In this document: positions 988 to 13,134 of the stretch, in pieces
Numbering within the stretch: position 1 is the stretch's first letter
Layout of the letters: each line of letters begins with the position of its first letter
Virus genome (UHGV): UHGV-0098481
Origin: a virus
Direction: 5' to 3' (one strand)
Length of the DNA: 48,822 bases
Made by a program: the position numbers and the translations under genes
Notes under the pieces: generated by a model
Databases searched by the model: none
Told to the model about the DNA's origin: nothing
What the model saw: only the letters and a program-made list of their open reading frames with translations

Positions 988-3900
988 ATGAAAAAAAATT
1001 CTTTAAATGTGATTTTGGATACTGTTTTCTCGGCGAAAAGCATCAATGGTGAGAAATCTCATTCTTTTATATCGTATAAATTAGTTAAAGCTGTAGAAAA
1101 TTTAAGTGGATATGACTTGGATCTTTTCCTCAATCGTGCGATAAACCATCCTAACTTCCCTAGCAATATGGATTTTTCCTTACGAACAGTTTTTACAATT
1201 GAACAATCTAACACTATTGAATTTAAAAATTTCATTTCAGAATTGGTGTGGTACAAGCATATTTTCATACGATATAAAAAACACCTTAATGATATATTAT
1301 CGGCAAAGGCAAGACTTGAGAAGTTAGTTCTTTTCGCAACAGGTAGTGAATGTATAAAATATTTAGATGAAATAGAAAGCTCTTATGGAGTTAGTTTTTG
1401 GAGCATTGATGCTCGTCTCTTAATAAATAAAGTTTTGCTTAACGAAAGCAATGGGTTATATGTTAAATCAATTCTATCTAAAACCCACTATAAACTTACA
1501 GAGTTTATGTTACAGCAGCTATTATTTAAGCATCAAGTACATAACTTTGATGATTTTTCAAAGAACCTTATAAAAATACTAGATGATATGCGCACCACTC
1601 AAGATAATGGGTATGCTAGAAATTTAGCTGATGGTATTTCATCCTTTTTAATACCTTTAGAGTTTGATAAAAATATAGATCTCAAAAATAGAACCTTAGC
1701 ACCATTTACCAACCTTCCTTTAATAGATCAATTTATCATATTCCAGAGAACTATAAGCGATTTACAACTTCATGGAAATGGTTTAAGAAATAGCGAGTTA
1801 AGCTTAATTGCAGAAATTAACAGCTTTATTAAAAATAACTATCTCAACAATATTTTAGATGGAAGAGAGCGTAATATAGAGAATATTGATGAACACTATA
1901 AAAGTGTTATTCGACGTTATACTATAGGTGATTATACTGGGTGTATTTCAGAAATAAATTCAGTTCGAACGCAGAAGACAATTTTGCCATTAATTGAAAT
2001 ATATGCAAAATCCCATGTGTATCTTGATAAGAAAATTTCAGACTCATGCATATTCAATAAATTAACAAACTGGCTTATAGCAATTATAAAATGCGACAGA
2101 CGCGCTGGAAAATACATCGATGAATTTGAACTTTTAGCATCTAAGATATATTTCAATTCAAATTCATCCTCTCTATTCTTCACATTATATAATTTAATAA
2201 GTGATAACCATAATAAATTAAACATATCTCGTATAAATCTAACCAAAAATGGTTCCTTTGTAACATCCCTTCATTTGAATATAACAATCAAGGAACTATG
2301 GACTGAACTTGGAATAAAAGAGAATGAGATACCAAAATATCGATTATTTAAATTCAAAGACCTAGCAAATCTATCCTTTGATGAAATCAAAAAACACTAC
2401 GAAGTATACAATGATAATGTAATAATTCGCTCTGAATATTTAAAAGATTATACTAACTTTTTATTAGAAAATGAAAAGTATGAATTATGCATCCAATTTA
2501 TAGCTGAAAACTGCATCGGCAACCCCGCAAATTATTACTACTTCCCAATCCGAAAAATAATTGATTTTGTAAAAGACAATATTTTTGACTATGCAAGCGT
2601 GGCCTTATCTATATTGATAGATATTTTTGTCAAAAGCACATCAAACACTTCAAATGAGCTTCTTCTCGAAAGTTATGAGAGTTTAGTAGATATTTCAAAT
2701 ATTAATAGGCCATCTACCCATTATTGCTCTAAGCAATTAACTCCATTAGAGCACTATTTCCTTAAGTTTATCTGTATACCTTCCGTGATGGATTCAGACC
2801 CTTCATTCACAGGCACGGACGACTTGAAGAAGGAAAGAATTGCTATTATAGATCTATTATTAAAAGAACACGATGATGCAGATTTATTGAAAGAGAAAGA
2901 CGAAATTATAGATGAAATATCATTCGAAGAAATAAAAACAAAATATGAGACAGGAAAAATATTTGTTGATATAGAAAATTTAAAACGGGCAAAGCTTGAA
3001 AGATACAGATATTATTTTGATGCACTTAAGGATTCGCTTATTCTCGGACTAGAACCACCTGAAGACTTTGCTTTAATTACAGACGATGGGAATATCACAG
3101 CCATTCCATCTGGCGATACAAACTCTATAATCCATGAACTTCTAAAAGAACTAATCTCCGATTTTGTTAAAAATGAAAATTACGGTCTTGATAAATATTT
3201 GAGTGCAGATATACGGCATGGTGTTTTTGAAAATCAACTCAGATCAAGTGCTGAAAAATCGCAATTAATAACTGATATGGATGGTACTGGACAGTATTCG
3301 AAAAGCAATTTAATTATTGAGACATATCCATTAATTAACCCTATTATAAATAACGAAATAGGGACAGCAATAGCTGATTTCTCTTATCACTTTGACATTG
3401 AATTGGCTAAAGCCAATTCCTGGTTCAATGTCAAGACAATGCTCATAAGTGAATCACAGCAAGGTATGATTGATTTCCTCATTTCTGTTGATATGTTTAA
3501 TTCATTTAAAGCAGCAGTTTCAAATCAAGCATCTTTTGAGAAGTTTTTTGACGCTTGTATTAACTTCATGTGGGAAAGAACGTTCAGATGTTTGAATGAT
3601 ATTAAAGAGCGATTGCATTACGAATTTAAGAGGAATATTTTAGATTTAATTGCCACTCTTAGGCATCAAATTGATATCTATAGAAGACGTAGTTCCATGA
3701 GAGAAATCCAGGAGAAAATTGACCTCTTGGCCGAAAGCATTAATAAAGAAATTGCAACAGTCTGCGATTGGTTAAATGTACTTGAGTATAACGAGGAGAA
3801 AATATATAAAATATCATCCGTGATGCAGGCATGTAGGAAAACTTTTTTTAATATACACCATTGTTCTGATGATGCTATCGTTTTTGATTCAATGTATCAT

Positions 3901-4263
3901 GATGATGAACCAAAATTATCTTATAAAGAAGCCAAGCCTCTAATCACATCAATAATAACAGCGTTAAACAATGCTATGGCCTATGGTAATAAAAAAATCT
4001 TTATCAGTATTAAGCCTGAAGAAAAGTCATGGAAAATAACCATCAGAAATTTGATAATTGAGACAAAGAACAGAACTACCAACCAAATTTTACAAGAGAT
4101 TGATGATAAAATAAAACGAGGGGATAATAGTCTAAATATAAAAGAAGGCGGAGCTGGAATATATAAAATATATGATTTATTATGTTCATTACCGCAAAGA
4201 TTTAATGTGAATCATTGCATCCAAAATAACGAATTCATTTTAAATATTGAGATAAAGAAATGA
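988..4263 (+). CDS. Large soluble sensor protein with C-terminal histidine-kinase-like ATPase motifs (DtcA-like)
   Basis: 1091-aa ORF, strongly AT-rich; C-terminal N-box-like ALNNAMAYGN and glycine-rich G-box-like EGGAGIYKIYD; no obvious TM segment; first gene of a translationally coupled three-gene operon. Confidence 0.6.
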   Translation: MKKNSLNVILDTVFSAKSINGEKSHSFISYKLVKAVENLSGYDLDLFLNRAINHPNFPSNMDFSLRTVFTIEQSNTIEFKNFISELVWYKHIFIRYKKHLNDILSAKARLEKLVLFATGSECIKYLDEIESSYGVSFWSIDARLLINKVLLNESNGLYVKSILSKTHYKLTEFMLQQLLFKHQVHNFDDFSKNLIKILDDMRTTQDNGYARNLADGISSFLIPLEFDKNIDLKNRTLAPFTNLPLIDQFIIFQRTISDLQLHGNGLRNSELSLIAEINSFIKNNYLNNILDGRERNIENIDEHYKSVIRRYTIGDYTGCISEINSVRTQKTILPLIEIYAKSHVYLDKKISDSCIFNKLTNWLIAIIKCDRRAGKYIDEFELLASKIYFNSNSSSLFFTLYNLISDNHNKLNISRINLTKNGSFVTSLHLNITIKELWTELGIKENEIPKYRLFKFKDLANLSFDEIKKHYEVYNDNVIIRSEYLKDYTNFLLENEKYELCIQFIAENCIGNPANYYYFPIRKIIDFVKDNIFDYASVALSILIDIFVKSTSNTSNELLLESYESLVDISNINRPSTHYCSKQLTPLEHYFLKFICIPSVMDSDPSFTGTDDLKKERIAIIDLLLKEHDDADLLKEKDEIIDEISFEEIKTKYETGKIFVDIENLKRAKLERYRYYFDALKDSLILGLEPPEDFALITDDGNITAIPSGDTNSIIHELLKELISDFVKNENYGLDKYLSADIRHGVFENQLRSSAEKSQLITDMDGTGQYSKSNLIIETYPLINPIINNEIGTAIADFSYHFDIELAKANSWFNVKTMLISESQQGMIDFLISVDMFNSFKAAVSNQASFEKFFDACINFMWERTFRCLNDIKERLHYEFKRNILDLIATLRHQIDIYRRRSSMREIQEKIDLLAESINKEIATVCDWLNVLEYNEEKIYKISSVMQACRKTFFNIHHCSDDAIVFDSMYHDDEPKLSYKEAKPLITSIITALNNAMAYGNKKIFISIKPEEKSWKITIRNLIIETKNRTTNQILQEIDDKIKRGDNSLNIKEGGAGIYKIYDLLCSLPQRFNVNHCIQNNEFILNIEIKK

Positions 4264-4709
4264 AAATTCTTCTTGTTGAGGATATTGAATATAAGCGTGA
4301 TAAGGTGATCGGTTTACTAGAGTCTATTTCTGCCGATGTATCAGTCGATGTAGCTAAATCTTATGTTTCGGCAGTAAATTCCGCAACCAGTAAAACTTAT
4401 GATCTTATAATATTAGATATGAGCCTTCCCACTTACGATAAGGGGCCTAATGAAAATGGAGGTCGCTTCAGAGTGTACGGAGGGAAAGATATTATTCGCA
4501 AGTTAATGAGAGGAAAAGAGCATCCAGTAGTTGTGGTTTTAACACAACATACAACTTTTGGTGAAATTGGTGAGCAAAAAAATACTGACACTCTATCACA
4601 AGAGTTGAATGCTTTAATGGGATCAAAATTTATAGGTATTGTAAAATATGACTCAACTAAACCTCAATGGAAAGATGAAATAAAAAAAGTCGTACAGGAT
4701 TTGTTATGA
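4260..4709 (+). CDS. Stand-alone receiver (REC/CheY-like) domain protein (DtcB-like)
   Basis: 149 aa; MKILLVEDIE acidic pocket and LIILDMSLP phospho-acceptor Asp motif; start overlaps upstream stop (ATGA). Confidence 0.75.
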   Translation: MKILLVEDIEYKRDKVIGLLESISADVSVDVAKSYVSAVNSATSKTYDLIILDMSLPTYDKGPNENGGRFRVYGGKDIIRKLMRGKEHPVVVVLTQHTTFGEIGEQKNTDTLSQELNALMGSKFIGIVKYDSTKPQWKDEIKKVVQDLL

Positions 4710-5869
4710 TTAAAATATTAATAGTTGATGACAATAAATCTAGAATTGAAAAGCTAAAATCTAGCTTAACTGAACTCATCACAAAAAACATGATAAGGAT
4801 TGATGAGAAATATACAAGTGACGCCGCAAAAATCGCGCTCAAGTTAAATCAATATGATTATTTAATTCTTGATGTCTTTTTACCTAAAAAAGATAACTAT
4901 AGCCCAGATGAAAGAAATGGATTAGGTCTTTTAAAACAAATAAATTCAGATTCTAAATTTTACTCTCCAAAAAAAATAGTTGGCATAACTGCATATCTGA
5001 ATGATATATCCAGATATGAATCCGAATTCAGAGAATATGCTTCAATTATATTCGAGGCTCGACGTAATGATACTGGATGGCTTGAATCACTCAAAAAAAT
5101 CATTGAAAAGGATGTTGAATCTCAAGTAAGTTATAATCTCAATGAAAAAGATAGTGTTTTAATAACAGTACACGGTATAAGAACCTACGCACCTTGGCAA
5201 AATACCATAGAAGAAAAAATAACCAATATATCAAATAAATTTAACTATATAAAATTCAATTATGGTTTTCTAAATATTCTTTGTTTTTTATTCCCTCCGA
5301 CTAGACATCTATTTGCAAGAAAAATAATCCAAGACATACGAATTACAGTGGAATCAAATAAGAATAAAAGAATTTATATTATTTGTCATAGTTTTGGTAC
5401 CTACCTTGTATATTGTGCCTTAAGTAAACTGACACATACGGATGCAAAAATTGAATGTTTAATTTTTTCTGGTAGCGTATTAAAACGTACTACCTCATTG
5501 AAAACATTAAAGCAACATTGTAATGCAATAATAAATGACTGTGCTGTAAGTGATTATATTTTATTACTATGTAAAATGTTAGTCATTGGCTTGGGCGATG
5601 CAGGCAGAAAAGGGTTTATTGAGCCAAATGATGGTGTTTTCATTAACCGCTATTTTAAAGGAGGACATTCAACTTACTTCGAAGATAAAGATTTCATAGA
5701 AGTGAACTGGCTTCCTTTAATTTTTGACAATAAAAATATCGCGTCACGAGATGAAAGAAAAAATCATATTTTTTCCGATGTCACCAATGCTTTGCAAAAT
5801 ATAATTGAATATTTAAAAATACCAATATGGTTATTTTTTTCTTTTTTATTGATAGCACTGGTATTATAA
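4706..5869 (+). CDS. Receiver domain fused to alpha/beta-hydrolase-like effector with C-terminal hydrophobic anchor (DtcC-like)
   Basis: 387 aa; N-terminal REC motifs (ILIVDDN, LILDVFLP); downstream VHGI and nucleophile-elbow-like ICHSFGT; C-terminal IPIWLFFSFLLIALVL; start overlaps upstream stop. Confidence 0.7.
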   Translation: MIKILIVDDNKSRIEKLKSSLTELITKNMIRIDEKYTSDAAKIALKLNQYDYLILDVFLPKKDNYSPDERNGLGLLKQINSDSKFYSPKKIVGITAYLNDISRYESEFREYASIIFEARRNDTGWLESLKKIIEKDVESQVSYNLNEKDSVLITVHGIRTYAPWQNTIEEKITNISNKFNYIKFNYGFLNILCFLFPPTRHLFARKIIQDIRITVESNKNKRIYIICHSFGTYLVYCALSKLTHTDAKIECLIFSGSVLKRTTSLKTLKQHCNAIINDCAVSDYILLLCKMLVIGLGDAGRKGFIEPNDGVFINRYFKGGHSTYFEDKDFIEVNWLPLIFDNKNIASRDERKNHIFSDVTNALQNIIEYLKIPIWLFFSFLLIALVL

Positions 5870-5879
5870 TATCACTGCA

Positions 5880-5912
5880 CATTAAAAATCATATTGGAGC
5901 TTCCCTCATAAA
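5880..5912. terminator. Inverted-repeat hairpin just after the effector gene stop, possible terminator for convergent genes
   Basis: tattggagctt...aagctccaata inverted repeat with A/T-rich flanks; no clean U-tract on the plus strand. Confidence 0.3.
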
Positions 5913-6348
5913 GCTCCAATATAAAACACCATCATTTCAATAGTACCTGCAGCTAATTAAAACTAGTCAACCGAAAACATTAATCACTTTAAACTTTAGT
6001 ATGCACTTATACTTTCTTAATAATAGAAAAACACTTACAAATAAATTAATCATGTCAATCTCCGTAACTACAACCTCGGAAAGTATGTAAACAGGAATCA
6101 TTACTGAAAAAAACACGATTTCAGCAGAATTCTAGAAATATCCTGTGCTGCTGCCGATACCAACTTTCGTATATACTACCCTTCACGTTCCTTCTCGTTT
6201 TTATAAAACTATTCATTTATAACTATCAATAGGCATCATAACCAATGTAAGTGTAAGTACTGGTGAACGAGTGTCAATGGAGTTAAAAGTATCACTTCAT
6301 CCTGCTAAATATAAGTTATCCTACGTTTTAATATACTAGAACTCAAAA

Positions 6349-7314
6349 TTAGAATGGTTTGTTAATATTAATAGATTTACCATTGATATCTTTTGACACC
6401 TTAAAAAAATCTATACCTTTTATCCACTGACATAACTGTTGTAGTGTTTCCATTGCCTGTTCTAACTCATTTTTTTCAATTCTAACGCCCCCATGATGGC
6501 TACAGGAATTTAATAATTCCTGAGCTAGAGTGATGTCATTCTTCAGCTTATTAGGCAGACCGAGAAAATTAATCACCCTCGACAAACTCCCAAGCATTAA
6601 CTTTTGATAGTCTTCTTCAAATTCCTTTTCAGCCCTAATATTTACTAACATCAAAACATACTCAAGATAACGCCGTGCTGTATTTCCCTTTTCTTGTAAC
6701 GCATCTCTATCATACTCTTTAATATCACTCAATTCCTGTAGTAGAAAATCAAACTTAGCTATTGCCAAGTTAAGATTGATGTTATGCATTAGCAATTCGG
6801 ATGCATGATTGCTAACAGGTACACGATTTGGTGGACGTATCATTATAGCCGTCGTGTAACAATTTATATTTGGTATCTGTATAAATTCCTCACCGGAACG
6901 CGTAACACGTTGAACTTCTACCATATAGTGGCCAAATTTATCAATCTCATATGACCGACAACGAGCAGAATATAATTTATTTAGCTTTTTCCTGTCTTGA
7001 TAATATGATTTTATTAATACAAAAAATGCTCTTTCGTGCTCAATAATTAAAATAGTCTCTATTGAAGCATGGTACAACCATCCGTTATTCCATGTTAATT
7101 CAAGCTGTCTATTTCCATCTTTAAAATCAATTTTAGTTATACGATCCCAACTTCCTCTATCAATAAAATCGACAATATTGCGCCCAAATCCTTGATAGTT
7201 ATTTTTAACAATGTGCAATAGTACTGCCTTTATTTTATCCCAATCATGAATTTCTTTTTCATATTCACCATTTAATATATTCGTTAAATCACTGTGAAAA
7301 TTTTCATATGTCAT
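6349..7314 (-). CDS. Hypothetical island cargo protein (321 aa), function unknown
   Basis: Long AT-rich ORF directly downstream of the island integrase; no motif I can assign. Confidence 0.6.
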   Translation of the reverse strand: MTYENFHSDLTNILNGEYEKEIHDWDKIKAVLLHIVKNNYQGFGRNIVDFIDRGSWDRITKIDFKDGNRQLELTWNNGWLYHASIETILIIEHERAFFVLIKSYYQDRKKLNKLYSARCRSYEIDKFGHYMVEVQRVTRSGEEFIQIPNINCYTTAIMIRPPNRVPVSNHASELLMHNINLNLAIAKFDFLLQELSDIKEYDRDALQEKGNTARRYLEYVLMLVNIRAEKEFEEDYQKLMLGSLSRVINFLGLPNKLKNDITLAQELLNSCSHHGGVRIEKNELEQAMETLQQLCQWIKGIDFFKVSKDINGKSININKPF

Positions 7315-7415
7315 AAGTATCTCTTTTTAGATAAAATTGGATTTCGACAAGTAGACGTTGATAACAACAAGACTGGTTAGATAATTTAATCATTGATGCA
7401 ACGTTTAGCGTTGAA

Positions 7416-8600
7416 TCAATTGACATCATTACCAATTCTTCCAATGCAATCAGCATACCACTGCATCATCTCCCTCCGCCCTTCCAGATACAAAGCATGG
7501 TTGTACGTCCCACGAATCGCATTCTTATCGACATGCGCAAGCTGGGTTTCAATCCATGCCGTATTGAACCCTTCCTCGTGCAAAATCGTACTCATCGTGT
7601 GACGGAAACCATGCCCCGTTACCTTCCCCGTATACCCAATCCGTTTGAATACCTGATTCATACTCGCTTCACTCATCGTCTTGCGGGGATCATTTCGCCC
7701 TGGGAATACCAGTGGATATTGCCCAGATATCACCTTGAGTTGTTGTACGATTTCCAGCGCTTGGGTAGATAGGGGGACAAGGTGAGGCCGTTTCATCTTC
7801 ATACGCTCTGCAGGTATTTCCCACACTGCTTTTTCAAGATCAAACTCACTCCAGAAAGCACCTCGTAGCTCGCCAGTACGAACTCCTGTAAGGATCAGCA
7901 GACGAGCGGCAAGAACAACTAACGGGCTTCCTGTGTAGCCTGCGAGAGCTTTAAAGAAGTCTGGTAACTCCTCAACAGTAAGGAAGGGATAATGCTTCGA
8001 TTCATGCCCTGACATTGCGCTGGTTAGATCCGCTGCAGGATTGTATTCCGCACGACCGGTAACGATGGCGTAACGAAAGACTTCACTGCAACGCTGGCGA
8101 ACCTTCTTGGCCTTCTCTGTCGCGCCACGGCTTTCCATTCGACGTAGCACATTCAGCAGAACCAAAGGCTTGATGTCATTCACCGGCAGTTGGCCAATAT
8201 AAGGGAAAATATCTTTATTGAAGGCTTCGATAATGTCGGAGGCATAACCTTCTGACCACCGGCTCACCTTCGTTCCGTGCCATTCAAGTGCCACAGCCTG
8301 AAACGTATTATTGAGCTGCACATCGCGAACCAACTTTTCTTCTTTCTTGGCAAACGATGGGTCGATACCTTCGGCCAGCTTTTTCTTGGCTTCATCACGC
8401 AGTGCCCTCGCTTGTGCAAGGGACACTGCCGGATAGACACCAAAAGCCATACGTTTCTCTTTTCCATTGAAGCGATATTTCATCCGCCAGTATCGAGAAC
8501 CAGAAGGAACAACTTCAAGATACAAGCCTGCACCATCTGCTAGCTTGTAGGCTTTCTCTCTGGGTTTAGCAGCATCTACCTGTCGAGCATTAAGCTTCAT
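7416..8600 (-). CDS. int: Tyrosine integrase, P4/CP4-type
   Basis: ORF 7416-8639, start taken at MKLNARQVDAAKP with AGGGAG upstream; C-terminal catalytic region with R...HGFRHT...Y pattern; immediately downstream of the tRNA 3' fragment on the same strand. Confidence 0.85.
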   Translation of the reverse strand: MKLNARQVDAAKPREKAYKLADGAGLYLEVVPSGSRYWRMKYRFNGKEKRMAFGVYPAVSLAQARALRDEAKKKLAEGIDPSFAKKEEKLVRDVQLNNTFQAVALEWHGTKVSRWSEGYASDIIEAFNKDIFPYIGQLPVNDIKPLVLLNVLRRMESRGATEKAKKVRQRCSEVFRYAIVTGRAEYNPAADLTSAMSGHESKHYPFLTVEELPDFFKALAGYTGSPLVVLAARLLILTGVRTGELRGAFWSEFDLEKAVWEIPAERMKMKRPHLVPLSTQALEIVQQLKVISGQYPLVFPGRNDPRKTMSEASMNQVFKRIGYTGKVTGHGFRHTMSTILHEEGFNTAWIETQLAHVDKNAIRGTYNHALYLEGRREMMQWYADCIGRIGNDVN

Positions 8601-8764
8601 TGGGGGCATCTCCCTGGACCGAACACAGAATGCCCCCACTTATGCCCCCAACTGCGACTTGATTTCGGTTGAGTCCAGTTGATAACAGGAGATAAGATAC
8701 GGGCCAGAAACCGCAGTATACGGGCTTTTAGTTGATTTCGGTAGACTTGGGAAGAGTTTGAAAT

Positions 8765-9144: not shown

Positions 9145-11850
9145 CTACATTGCCATTAATATAAACATAGCCAATTCGTCATAACGAATTCCGTAGCGTC
9201 CTCCTGCTTTTTTTACAAGAATCATATCTCCTGTTTTATATTGAGAATAAATTTTCTCACCTGTATCAGGATCTGTGCTCTCTTCAGTTATCACCTCTTC
9301 ATCCCATACGTCAGGCCATTCATCGTAACACCAAAAAGCATATTTCTCAGGGTTTAAACCATGCTTTCTAAGAATATCCCCTACGGTTTGAGCGCCAACG
9401 CCAAAATGATACCTGGACGACTCAATTCCTTTGTGATTAATTGAGTCATTAAATTTAAATTTATAGATGACTGACTTTATTTCAATAGCGGCATCACGCT
9501 CTGCATTAAGAATATCATATCTTGTTTTAAGAGTTTCATCTGATGTATTGATTGACCCGGTTCCTGCATAAATAACAGAGCATCTGTTTGATGGCTGTCC
9601 AATAGCTTTAACATTATCATCAACAGGAGCTATTTTATTAGCATCTGCCAACCACCAGTCTGTTCCATCAGCGTGACCGATTCTTACTCTTATCCCACTT
9701 CTAATATTTAAACTTCCAGTATTACTCTGTAAATTACAATCTCCTGACGTTGGTCCAAGCAGTACAGTTTTACCAACACCACATACTACTCTGGCATTTC
9801 CTTTTTGTGATACGAGTCTTGACTCACCTCCTGACTGCTCAGGAAGAGATTTATGGTCTATAAATGCATCGCGGGGGTTAAATACACCGTCTCCAGAATT
9901 ATATCTTCCTCCTGTATAGTTGTTAAATACAGGACCCCAGTCAACGCCATTGCCTTCAGAGCACCCGACCATTCTAAGCACTCGAGTATTCCCTGCTGCA
10001 TATGGTAATGAGCTTGTTGATTGCCGGGAAGCTATCATACGTGCTCCATAACCAATAGCATTACCACCATTTATAGTTACATATGCTTGCTGGCTTTCGA
10101 AATATGTACTGTAAAAGTTCATATTTCCACAGTCATGTAGATGAATAAGAACATCATCCCATCCCTGAATGGTTCCTGCATGTACCTGTACACCGCGAAC
10201 TGGTTCCCCTGAAACCTCCATACACTCTGATGGTCGGCTGAATGGTTGAGACAGGTATTGCGATGTGGCAAGCAGATGTGTGTGGTGATACAGGCTGGTA
10301 ATGTAGCAATCGAAAAATTGCGTTCCCGCCATACCAAAGTTATCTATGTCATTTCGCCGTATAGTAGAACCTACTGTTGCCTCAGAAGCGTTAGACACTC
10401 CAGTAAATACTAACTTATCACCGGATACGGATAATCCTGAATAAGTGAAATTCCTGCCTCCAGATCTTAAAACCCCGGACGTTTCGAAGGTGTGGCTTGC
10501 TGACCATGGGATTTCGATAGTGCTGGACGTTACCGCTGTAATTCGGAATACATCATGGGCGCGGATCGAAACACCCTTGAATCCCTGGAATCTACAGTGA
10601 TAATAGTTTTCATCCTCGCCCTGAGCAGCCAGCGTGTCAGATACAGGAATGTTCGTTTTTAAAAGTGCCGTCTTGCGCCAGTATCCAACCACCTGCAAAT
10701 TGCGGTATTCATTGCCAAAAGACGCACGTGACCAAATACCTACATCCCACTCATCGCCAAGACCGGTATTTGCAATGTCTTTATAACCATCCAGACCATT
10801 GAAATATGGAACAATACGAAAGTTCTCAAGGCGAACACATCCTGTCTCAGGCATCAATATTGCGGCAGAGAATGGTTTAAGCGTGGCTCTTGTAGTCCCA
10901 TTAGCATCACCGTTAGTAAAATCCAATAAATCATATGATGACGCAGGTGCCGTTGTTGTATACGGGTCTTCGGAAGATGGATTAGAAACCACACCACCAC
11001 TAACATCCATATTAGAAACACAATCTACAGTATATTTTTTATTTCCTACCCCGTACATCAGGAATGTGGTCCCTGTGGTAATATCAGGAGCAAATGTTGC
11101 AGTATATCCTGAGACCCATTTGCCCACACCAAGACAAATTATCCCACCACCAGAAACAGGTGTTAACGTATCCGTTATTACATACGCATTATCAGTACCA
11201 TAAATAACCTTTCCTGTGTTAAGGGCAGCTTGCCACGCGGCCCAGTCTATTGACTGAGATAATGAGTCAACAAAAGGATATAAGGATTTTGCTTCAGAAA
11301 TTGAAGAAAACCACTCAGATAATGGATGATATTTCCCATCCCCAATTGCTCCAAATTGTTTTACATTTAAGAAAAGAGCATTGTTTTCATGCTGAGTTAT
11401 AGTTACAGCCCCGGTAAATGGCTGCCTTACCCCAATTAATGCATCACCTTTTGAATCATCATTAATGTATGCTCCTGATTGAGATAACTGCTCTTTGAAG
11501 TCTGGGCCAAACTGATCTGGATCGTATTTTAATACATTTGGAAAATAGAACTGCTTCGCACCATACGCATCATAAACAGCCATAGAATGGCCTTGCACAG
11601 TTACGAATTTGGCAATCTGTCCGTTATATACCGGATAACCAGCAGCGTTAATGATGATTGGTTGAGAAACAGGAACGTGAGAACCGTCTTCGTTCTCTAC
11701 ATAAACCTGAATCCGGTTTTCTGGATTTACCGGGTCAGCGTCAATTTTACCGATATAAATTTTTCCATTGGCAACCGCTTTAAAAGAACGCGCCATAGTG
11801 AAGAGTTGCGAAGGCATACTCACTACAACATTGGCTGTAATGTCTGTCAT
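9145..11850 (-). CDS. Tailspike protein: P22-like N-terminal head-binding domain, divergent receptor-binding body, C-terminal chaperone-like domain
   Basis: N-terminus [11 protein letters not shown]...[12 protein letters not shown]...VQGHSMA...LKYDPDQ closely matches the P22 gp9 head-binding domain; remainder unlike P22; C-terminal ...[11 protein letters not shown]... resembles auto-cleaving intramolecular chaperone domains. Confidence 0.85.
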
Positions 11851-12248: not shown

Positions 12249-12262
12249 CGGTGGGTTTTATT
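12240..12262. terminator. Bidirectional rho-independent terminator between convergent mnt and the putative toxin gene
   Basis: cccacc-tgac-ggtggg hairpin flanked by A-run upstream and T-run downstream. Confidence 0.65.
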
Positions 12263-12680
12263 AGTGCTTGTATAGGTTGAACTCTCTATCAAGCCATATA
12301 ACAAAAAATGTCGATCCAAGACGATAACCAACCATGGCTTTCAAATCATCAAATCTAAAAGCCAAGAAATGATCTACGTCTTCCGTTATATGACTGGGGA
12401 TACCTGCTTTAATTGCACCCCTTGCAATCTTCTCAAATCCAAGCTTATGCCTACCTTGCTGCTTAATATCTGCCCATGTTAGTTGACTTAATCTGTATAA
12501 TTTATCAGCTAAGCCAGCTTTCTCATCTTTTTGGCATTTCGTTATGCAGTGAGAGCTTTGGATGTAACAGAATGAAAATTTCGGTTTCTTTTGATCTGAA
12601 TTCCCCCCTGACTGCGGCCCTAACTTTAACTTACCTGTAGATTCAGCAGGGGGGATAATCCTTTTAGATTTTCTTGCCAT
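12261..12680 (-). CDS. Hypothetical protein, candidate toxin partner of the Panacea-domain protein
   Basis: ~139 aa from MARKSKRIIPP...; starts 4 nt after the upstream ORF stop; basic N-terminus; no family assigned. Confidence 0.5.
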   Translation of the reverse strand: MARKSKRIIPPAESTGKLKLGPQSGGNSDQKKPKFSFCYIQSSHCITKCQKDEKAGLADKLYRLSQLTWADIKQQGRHKLGFEKIARGAIKAGIPSHITEDVDHFLAFRFDDLKAMVGYRLGSTFFVIWLDREFNLYKH

Positions 12681-12684
12681 CTCG

Positions 12685-13134
12685 TTAGTTAATCCGAGTT
12701 GCAAAGTACTCTGCCATCTCCTTAGAACTAATTTCAGAACCACCAACACCCTCAATATAGTTTGATCTCCATGGTGACTCTTCGTGTGTCATGTTCCTCA
12801 GTTTCCAGGCAGAAAATTGCCCAAAAACATCCCAGACTTCTTCTAATAGCTCTAACTGTTCTTCGCTGAATTTTTCAGCATCAAAAGACTCTGGAGAAGG
12901 GATAGCACCATTACCATATTGTTTATAACGGTGATAAAGCTCAGGGACAACAGGGCCATGCATCCAAGCTTCCATCTTATTCTGAAAAAGAGGCTCGCCA
13001 AGCAACGCCAATGAAAAACCCTGAGCATAGTAAACAAGCTTTTGTAATTTTAAATTAGAGATTGCGTCACCGCTATCCTCGTCACACCGCGACAGGAAGT
13101 AGTCGGCGACATCAAAACAAGTAAGCATGAACAC
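12685..13134 (-). CDS. DUF4065/Panacea-domain protein (SocA-like antitoxin family)
   Basis: 149 aa; LKLQKLVYYAQGFSLALLGEPLF...EAWMHGPVVPELYHRYKQYG pattern typical of the phage-associated Panacea domain. Confidence 0.7.
   Translation of the reverse strand: MFMLTCFDVADYFLSRCDEDSGDAISNLKLQKLVYYAQGFSLALLGEPLFQNKMEAWMHGPVVPELYHRYKQYGNGAIPSPESFDAEKFSEEQLELLEEVWDVFGQFSAWKLRNMTHEESPWRSNYIEGVGGSEISSKEMAEYFATRIN

Follow-up and report, generated by a model that had tools for sequence, protein, structure and literature searches.

The genome of the virus UHGV-0098481, a stretch of 48,822 nucleotides that is called the window below, was found to contain a tailspike gene at positions 9145–11850 of the minus strand. 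The gene is a single open reading frame (ORF) that starts with an ATG at position 11850 and ends with a stop codon at 9145–9147, and a GGAG sequence lies ~9–12 nucleotides 5′ of the ATG. The encoded protein is 100% identical to WP_134889095.1 from Escherichia coli 23CRST013, which is annotated as "phage tailspike protein", and it is matched over its full length by PHROG 1171 ("tail spike protein"). A search of the tailspike against NCBIfam returned nothing meaningful. In the annotated context, the gene is the last of a complete P22-like morphogenesis cluster that comprises a terminase, a portal, a scaffold, a P22-family coat protein, gp4, gp10, a needle, and three ejection proteins. The genes for the gp17- and gp16-family ejection proteins are found upstream of the tailspike gene in the P22-like order, and an Arc-family gene is located just upstream of it. 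The tailspike gene is intact, and the prophage to which it belongs is P22-like and lies in an E. coli chromosome. We propose, with a probability of roughly 0.65, that this tailspike joins a P22-type anchor to a beta-helix that binds and cleaves a group 2 capsule of the type made by the polymerase KrkA, and to a self-cleaving chaperone, and that the host range of the phage is set by the K antigen. The features of the gene are listed below.

9145..11850, minus strand: coding sequence of the tailspike, taken from the list of ORFs (901 residues and the stop codon)
11512..11850, minus strand: head-binding (virion anchor) domain, residues 1–113 (Pfam PF09008)
11374..11511, minus strand: neck or linker with the recombination junction between the anchor and the receptor-binding module, residues 114–159
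9871..11373, minus strand: body, a right-handed parallel beta-helix and putative capsule depolymerase, residues ~160–660
9544..9870, minus strand: C-terminal stalk before the predicted cleavage site, residues 661–769, including the codon for Arg756 at 9583–9585
9148..9543, minus strand: peptidase S74/intramolecular chaperone domain, residues 770–901 (Pfam PF13884, phmmer, and Foldseek)
9541..9543, minus strand: codon for Ser770, the predicted nucleophile (alignment to 3gw6)
9526..9528, minus strand: codon for Lys775, the predicted general base (alignment to 3gw6)

The N-terminal domain is matched by Pfam PF09008 (Head_binding), with residues 1–113 falling on model positions 1–113 at an E value of 3.6e-65 and a score of 217.7 bits against a cut-off of 24. 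The anchor also matches the structures 7sg7, 2vky, and 1lkt in the Protein Data Bank (PDB). Residues 1–114 are 96.5% identical to HK620 gp9, and residues 1–172 are ~78% identical to Sf6 gp14. The likeness to the tailspikes of P22, Sf6, and HK620 ends past about residue 115–175. A preliminary description of this DNA had assigned a P22-type head-binding domain to the protein and had limited the resemblance to P22 gp9 to the first ~115 residues, and both assignments were borne out.

The body is predicted to fold as a single-stranded right-handed parallel beta-helix, in a model of the monomer to which all of the structural predictions given here refer. This is one of the two folds, a beta-helix or a propeller, that the preliminary description had allowed for the central domain. 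PF12708, a pectin-lyase fold family, is matched by 19 of 55 relatives of the protein. When the family profile was searched against the PDB, the matches were confined to the N-cap and to the C-terminal stalk and chaperone, and the core of the body was left with no solved relative that is detectable by sequence. An exhaustive search of representative sequences showed that the family is large, with 1,373 representatives at E ≤ 1e-3, and a word-indexed protein search returned near-identical copies only. The family alignment keeps D369, R430, D433, H522, E545, R552, and E585, and these residues are candidates for catalysis or for the binding of substrate. The identification of the protein as an endosialidase was considered and rejected. 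Only residues 735–769 match the Pfam family End_tail_spike, at the last 35 positions of the model (126–160) and with a score of 22.9 bits that falls below the cut-off of 25, and the body is a predicted beta-helix. A near-identical homologue from E. coli YDC107 (P0027) was named "putative endo-N-acetylneuraminidase" by its submitter, and this name probably derives from the shared chaperone domain.

The C-terminal 132 residues belong with the intramolecular chaperones. Pfam PF13884 (Peptidase_S74) matches residues 770–832 with a marginal score of 23.0 bits against a cut-off of 22. A phmmer search of the chains of solved structures identified 7y5s (Kp7 gp51, E 3.8e-21), 3gw6 (the chaperone of endoNF, E 3e-14), 4uw8 (T5 pb1, E 6e-12), and 3gud (the chaperone of a neck appendage protein, E 3e-9), as well as 9vvr and 6eu4; with the family profile, the match to 3gw6 was found at an E value of 2.4e-22. 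Judged from these alignments, the matches are due to homology and not to chance. The predicted fold of the C-terminal domain was matched by Foldseek to 3gw6 (E 6.8e-11), 4uw8 (E 3e-10), and 3gud (template modeling score of 0.75), and the predicted local distance difference test values are 85–97 across residues 780–901. The confidence of the model is lower in the stalk than elsewhere, and this is to be expected because the segment folds only as a trimer. The motifs TSDETLK (residues 769–775) and RYHFGVGAQ (residues 813–821), which the preliminary description had quoted from a chaperone-like region of ~140 residues, are present, and its assignment of this region agrees with the S74 match, however marginal, with the matches to solved chaperones, and with the conservation of the catalytic positions.

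In the alignment to 3gw6, Ser770 falls on the alanine that replaces Ser911 in this uncleavable construct, Lys775 falls on Lys916, and Arg756 falls on chain residue 108, which corresponds to Arg897 of endoNF. The numbering was checked with the 275-residue chain of 3gw6, for which a start at residue 790 of endoNF places the engineered alanine at position 911. Ser770 and Lys775 are also in register with the equivalent positions of 4uw8. Among 80 aligned relatives, 38 have the S74 domain, and an arginine is found in the column of Arg756 in 47 of the 80. By analogy with endoNF, cleavage is predicted between Thr769 and Ser770, which would give fragments of 83.1 and 15.3 kDa.

The C-terminal domain might instead remain part of the mature spike and serve there in distal binding or stabilization. 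The marginal Pfam score for S74 would fit with such a role, and some deposited tailspike chains (9vvr and 7y5s) align through the domain to their last residues. However, the Ser911-Lys916 dyad and the assisting stalk residue Arg897 are all required for the cleavage of endoNF (PMC8326128), and these are the residues matched by Ser770, Lys775, and Arg756. The dyad is kept in 37 of the 38 relatives that have the domain. The solved structures in which the domain is uncleaved (3gw6 and 4uw8) both have an alanine at the position of the serine, which shows that they could be obtained only with cleavage prevented by mutation. We consider the retention of the domain to be unlikely.

The distribution of the tailspike modules was determined in a sample of 5,426 complete E. 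coli genomes. The body is carried by 15 of these genomes and the chaperone cassette by 35, and some part of the tailspike gene is matched in 1,113 genomes, where the matches are mostly partial (to the anchor, for example). The body was found on at least four virion anchors. In one of these combinations, a protein of 991 residues from another type of prophage, a body and chaperone module that is 97% identical over residues 133–901 is attached to a different anchor of 220 residues. This form is found in YDC107 and in six more complete genomes; its anchor is of the PHROG 1640 type, and its gene adjoins that of a T7 gp14-family core protein. A related body is present in only 8 of 50,697 phage records, all of them from Escherichia phages. 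The body is ~42% identical in two Vectrevirus phages. The receptor-binding protein of the T7-like Kayfunavirus YZ1 has the same body and chaperone, with 81% identity in the body, and a different N-terminal anchor. No receptor data were found in the literature on phages YZ1, KMB14, and LF31P3, and no published substrate was found there for the YZ1 or YDC107 proteins. In strain 702/18, an IS3-family transposase divides the tailspike gene in two (NZ_CP074701.1, 4845217–4849267), with the head-binding part on one side and a "tail fiber domain" part on the other.

The capsule loci of the genomes that carry the body provide the main indication of its substrate. YDC107 is an O102:H6 strain of sequence type (ST) 964, and region 2 of its kps locus contains an acetyltransferase gene and a gene of 3,345 bp annotated as "HAD family hydrolase". 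In NCTC9022, the latter gene encodes WP_001336789.1, which is KrkA, the characterized K13 polymerase. KrkA alone builds the backbone of the K13, K20, and K23 capsules, which is composed of ribose and 3-deoxy-D-manno-oct-2-ulosonic acid (Kdo) in the sequence ->3)-beta-D-Ribf-(1->7)-beta-D-Kdop-(2-> (PMC12887879). The krkA gene was found in 65 of the 5,426 genomes, including 11 of the 15 that carry the body. The Fisher odds ratio for this association is 273 with a p-value of 4e-19, although the genomes are not phylogenetically independent, and this p-value and the one given below overstate the evidence and are only indicative.

Of the 11 carriers with krkA, six have the P22 anchor and the remaining five have the other one; together they span two krkA alleles with different acetyltransferases and two phage platforms. 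The carriers vary in O-antigen, sequence type, and integration site. The lineages with krkA include ST73, ST964, and ST2003, an O102:H6 strain, and an O21 strain. At least three integration sites are represented, namely argW (CS5L), the bio/ybhB region (UPEC_U013), and a site beside the vat island (DLL7555), and the neighboring immunity-region genes differ among these three prophages. The polymerase of YDC107 is 95.7% identical to KrkA, and the YDC107 acetyltransferase shares only 41% identity with that of K13; two related K types are therefore involved, and these probably share the backbone and differ in acetylation.

The krkA gene itself is annotated as two or three separate ORFs, or has a length that is off by 1–3 bases, in CS5L (L016, 9001–12348), 702/18, PKF4, and 20AR0734. 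CS5L and 702/18 are lysogens of the tailspike described here. These disruptions could represent the loss of the capsule under phage pressure, or they could be sequencing indels.

As a control, we used a sister tailspike that has the same anchor and chaperone and a body that is only ~30% identical. At least 13 of the 18 known carriers of the sister tailspike have a different kps region 2, which is present in 108 genomes (p 3e-19), and none of its carriers are found in the list of genomes with krkA.

It is well established that most of the characterized P22-like tailspikes cut O-antigen (PMC10408124). The body could be a conventional O-antigen-specific endoglycosidase, as in P22, Sf6, and HK620, and the link to krkA could be a clonal by-product. 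Two of the carriers, including 23CRST013, are found among only 35 O21 genomes, and this mild enrichment would fit the carrier that breaks the capsule rule. However, the O loci of the carriers differ, with O21 in 23CRST013 and CS5L and O102:H6 in YDC107, and ST73 and ST2003 strains are also represented. Specificity for O21 was found to be insufficient as an explanation: the O21 wzy gene is present in 35 genomes, and the locus accounts for only 2 of the 15 carriers (23CRST013 and CS5L), whereas krkA accounts for 11 of the 15. In addition, Pas et al. had independently detected modules closely related to that of YZ1 in prophages from strains of serogroups O102, O6, O1, and O153; they considered the O-antigen unlikely to be the receptor and proposed another one, such as a K antigen (PMC10408124). 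An O-antigen endoglycosidase is, in our view, quite improbable. The preliminary description had pointed to a depolymerase of either capsule or O-antigen, and the co-occurrence with krkA, which is read from genome sequences, suggests that this can be sharpened to a capsule of the K13/K20/K23 type.

A number of observations weigh against this assignment. The most serious is that four of the 15 carriers, namely LS45, XH992, OZ547246, and the host of the window itself (23CRST013, an O21 strain with a K4 capsule locus), have no krkA. The kps loci of two of these, 23CRST013 and LS45, were inspected. Region 2 of 23CRST013 is complete and has the kfo gene order for K4, a fructosylated chondroitin, with an IS3-family insertion (NZ_AP045773.1, 4415000–4464999). 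Its glycosyltransferase of 686 residues, KfoC, matches the K4 chondroitin synthase of PDB entries 2Z86 and 2Z87 over residues 58–682 with a score of 1,455 bits. Specificity of the tailspike for K4 was considered and rejected, as kfoC is found in 20 of the 5,426 genomes and the only carrier among these is 23CRST013. LS45 and YDC107 have identical KpsF, KpsE, KpsD, KdsB, and KpsC proteins and identical pheV-island proteins, with a wholly different region 2. This pattern has the appearance of a recent capsule switch, through exchange of region 2, after the lineage had acquired the prophage. The tailspike allele closest to that of 23CRST013 is found in CS5L (99.7% identity), which is also O21 and has a kps locus of the YDC107 type, with krkA in three ORFs. 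The combination of O21 and K4 in 23CRST013 may be the result of a capsule switch akin to that of LS45. These accounts are post hoc, and the exceptions are the main weakness in the assignment of a capsule to this prophage.

The remaining objections concern the association with krkA and the protein itself. In addition to the phylogenetic non-independence of the genomes, the seven carriers of the 991-residue form may represent a single lysogenization, and the capsule of a lysogen is only a proxy for the target to which the phage adsorbs. No beta-helix or pectate-lyase family was matched in the Pfam search of the tailspike, even at E ≤ 1, and the score for PF13884 is only 1 bit over the cut-off. 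The preliminary description had looked to S74, pectate-lyase/beta-helix, and sialidase domains; the first of these was recovered by Pfam, and the other two were not, given that End_tail_spike scored below its cut-off. The catalytic residues of the body are known only as candidates. None of the 8 phage records with a related body has a characterized substrate.

The four carriers that lack krkA would be accommodated if the body were to recognize another widely shared surface glycan, such as colanic acid, the enterobacterial common antigen, or the lipopolysaccharide core, or were to bind without cleaving, with the capsule only modulating access. PHROG 8280, named "colanic acid degradation", also matches the tailspike, and the candidate status of the residues in the body leaves room for a protein that binds only. 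We regard an explanation of this kind as very doubtful.

For a depolymerase of KrkA-type capsules, we infer the following steps from what was observed, namely the domain identities, the predicted fold, the conserved catalytic residues of the chaperone, and the co-occurrence of the body with krkA in genomes. The chaperone would trimerize and template the folding of the stalk and the beta-helix trimer, as expected from its homologues. Autoproteolysis by Ser770 and Lys775, between Thr769 and Ser770, would then free the chaperone and leave a mature subunit of 83 kDa and a fragment of 15 kDa. The anchor would dock six trimers on the tail hub, as in the matched structures from P22 and Sf6. The fold and the co-occurrence with krkA suggest that the beta-helix would bind and depolymerize the KrkA-type capsule and that the phage would in this way reach the outer membrane. 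The body would set the host range by the K antigen rather than by the O-antigen, because the cleavage of the capsule would open the outer membrane to the phage. The ribose-Kdo backbone would more plausibly be cut by a hydrolase than by a lyase.

The architecture of this tailspike is already known. CUS-3, a K1-specific P22-like prophage of E. coli RS218, is likewise a temperate phage with a spike that acts on a group 2 capsule. The anchor of the CUS-3 endosialidase tailspike is 88% identical over residues 1–125, and it has a C-terminal chaperone of the S74 type, as is found in the endosialidases. However, the catalytic body of the CUS-3 tailspike is a polysialic acid-specific endosialidase, whereas the body of the tailspike from the window is a beta-helix, and the sole similarity of the latter to the endosialidases is the 35-residue segment of the stalk that falls below the Pfam cut-off. 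P22 gp9, Sf6 gp14, and HK620 gp9 share the anchor with this tailspike as well as the general plan of anchor, neck, and beta-helix. In contrast, these three proteins cut O-antigen, have no S74 domain (the matches stop before the C-terminal region), and show no sequence similarity to the body past the first coils of the beta-helix.

The chaperones of endoNF (3GW6), T5 pb1 (4UW8), and the neck appendage protein (3GUD) are homologous to the C-terminal domain, with the same spacing of the serine and the lysine, the stalk arginine kept, and a similar predicted fold. They are ~24–33% identical to the domain in the window, which differs in that it is attached to a beta-helix and a P22 anchor and in that its cleavage is predicted. 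Spikes composed of a beta-helix and a chaperone are common in phages. Kp7 gp51 (7Y5S), Depo32 (7VZ3), and KP32gp38 (9QRM) are beta-helix depolymerases that act on Klebsiella capsules, and their bodies are 8–16% identical to the body described here.

The new elements of this report are the probable specificity for K13/K20/K23 and the paired mapping of bodies to capsules. No paper that ties a sequence-defined spike to E. coli K13, K20, or K23 was found in the literature. We would give even odds that this tailspike is a depolymerase for the ribose-Kdo capsules (K13/K20/K23) of extraintestinal pathogenic E. coli, and the first one to be defined at the sequence level. If so, its substrate specificity would be new, and it might also represent a novel family of glycosidases within the beta-helix fold. 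Together with the sister tailspike, it would also mean that a subset of the P22-like temperate coliphages choose their hosts by K antigen, with interchangeable bodies placed between an anchor and a chaperone cassette that are both conserved.

Tailspikes are determinants of host range, and they are also practical reagents for the detection and stripping of capsules. The reagents available for E. coli capsules are essentially limited to K1 and K5 (2025 preprint), and K13_K23 ranks with the K types that have the strongest links to invasive disease (2026 typing study). If the specificity proposed here is correct, the tailspike and its relatives would provide a probe and a decapsulating enzyme for K13/K20/K23, and their genes would serve as a marker for prophages and lytic phages that are able to infect K13/K20/K23 strains. 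The pairing with a sister tailspike offers a simple way, from genomes alone, to assign capsule specificities to uncharacterized prophage tailspikes.

Several features near the tailspike gene were also noted. A two-gene cassette on the minus strand (12261–13134) is located between the genes for the ejection proteins and the tailspike gene. The first gene encodes a Panacea-domain protein (ORF 12685–13134), and the second is an adjacent small ORF listed at 12261–12755, for which the RefSeq annotation gives a shorter product. The cassette looks like a toxin-antitoxin or defense module at the position of the immI/superinfection-exclusion region of P22, and the same pair of genes is found in the CS5L prophage. 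Directly downstream of the tailspike gene is an island of 30% GC content (1000–8640). The tyrosine integrase at 7416–8639 of the minus strand belongs to this island and not to the tailspike. In RefSeq, the island also contains a hypothetical gene of 3,276 bp and two response-regulator genes, and it looks like an independent element that was integrated in tandem with the prophage. The search for tRNA genes found none in the whole of the window.

The chromosome of 23CRST013 contains a second glycan cluster in an integrase-bounded island that adjoins clpA (NZ_AP045773.1, 3340000–3389999). This cluster is of the ATP-binding cassette transporter type and resembles the Klebsiella O1/O2 galactan locus, with a permease, RfbB, a DUF4422 protein, glf, and glycosyltransferases, and it is heavily broken up by insertion sequence elements. 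The same chromosome has undergone a large inversion, in which aqpZ is joined to dusC via an IS110 element.

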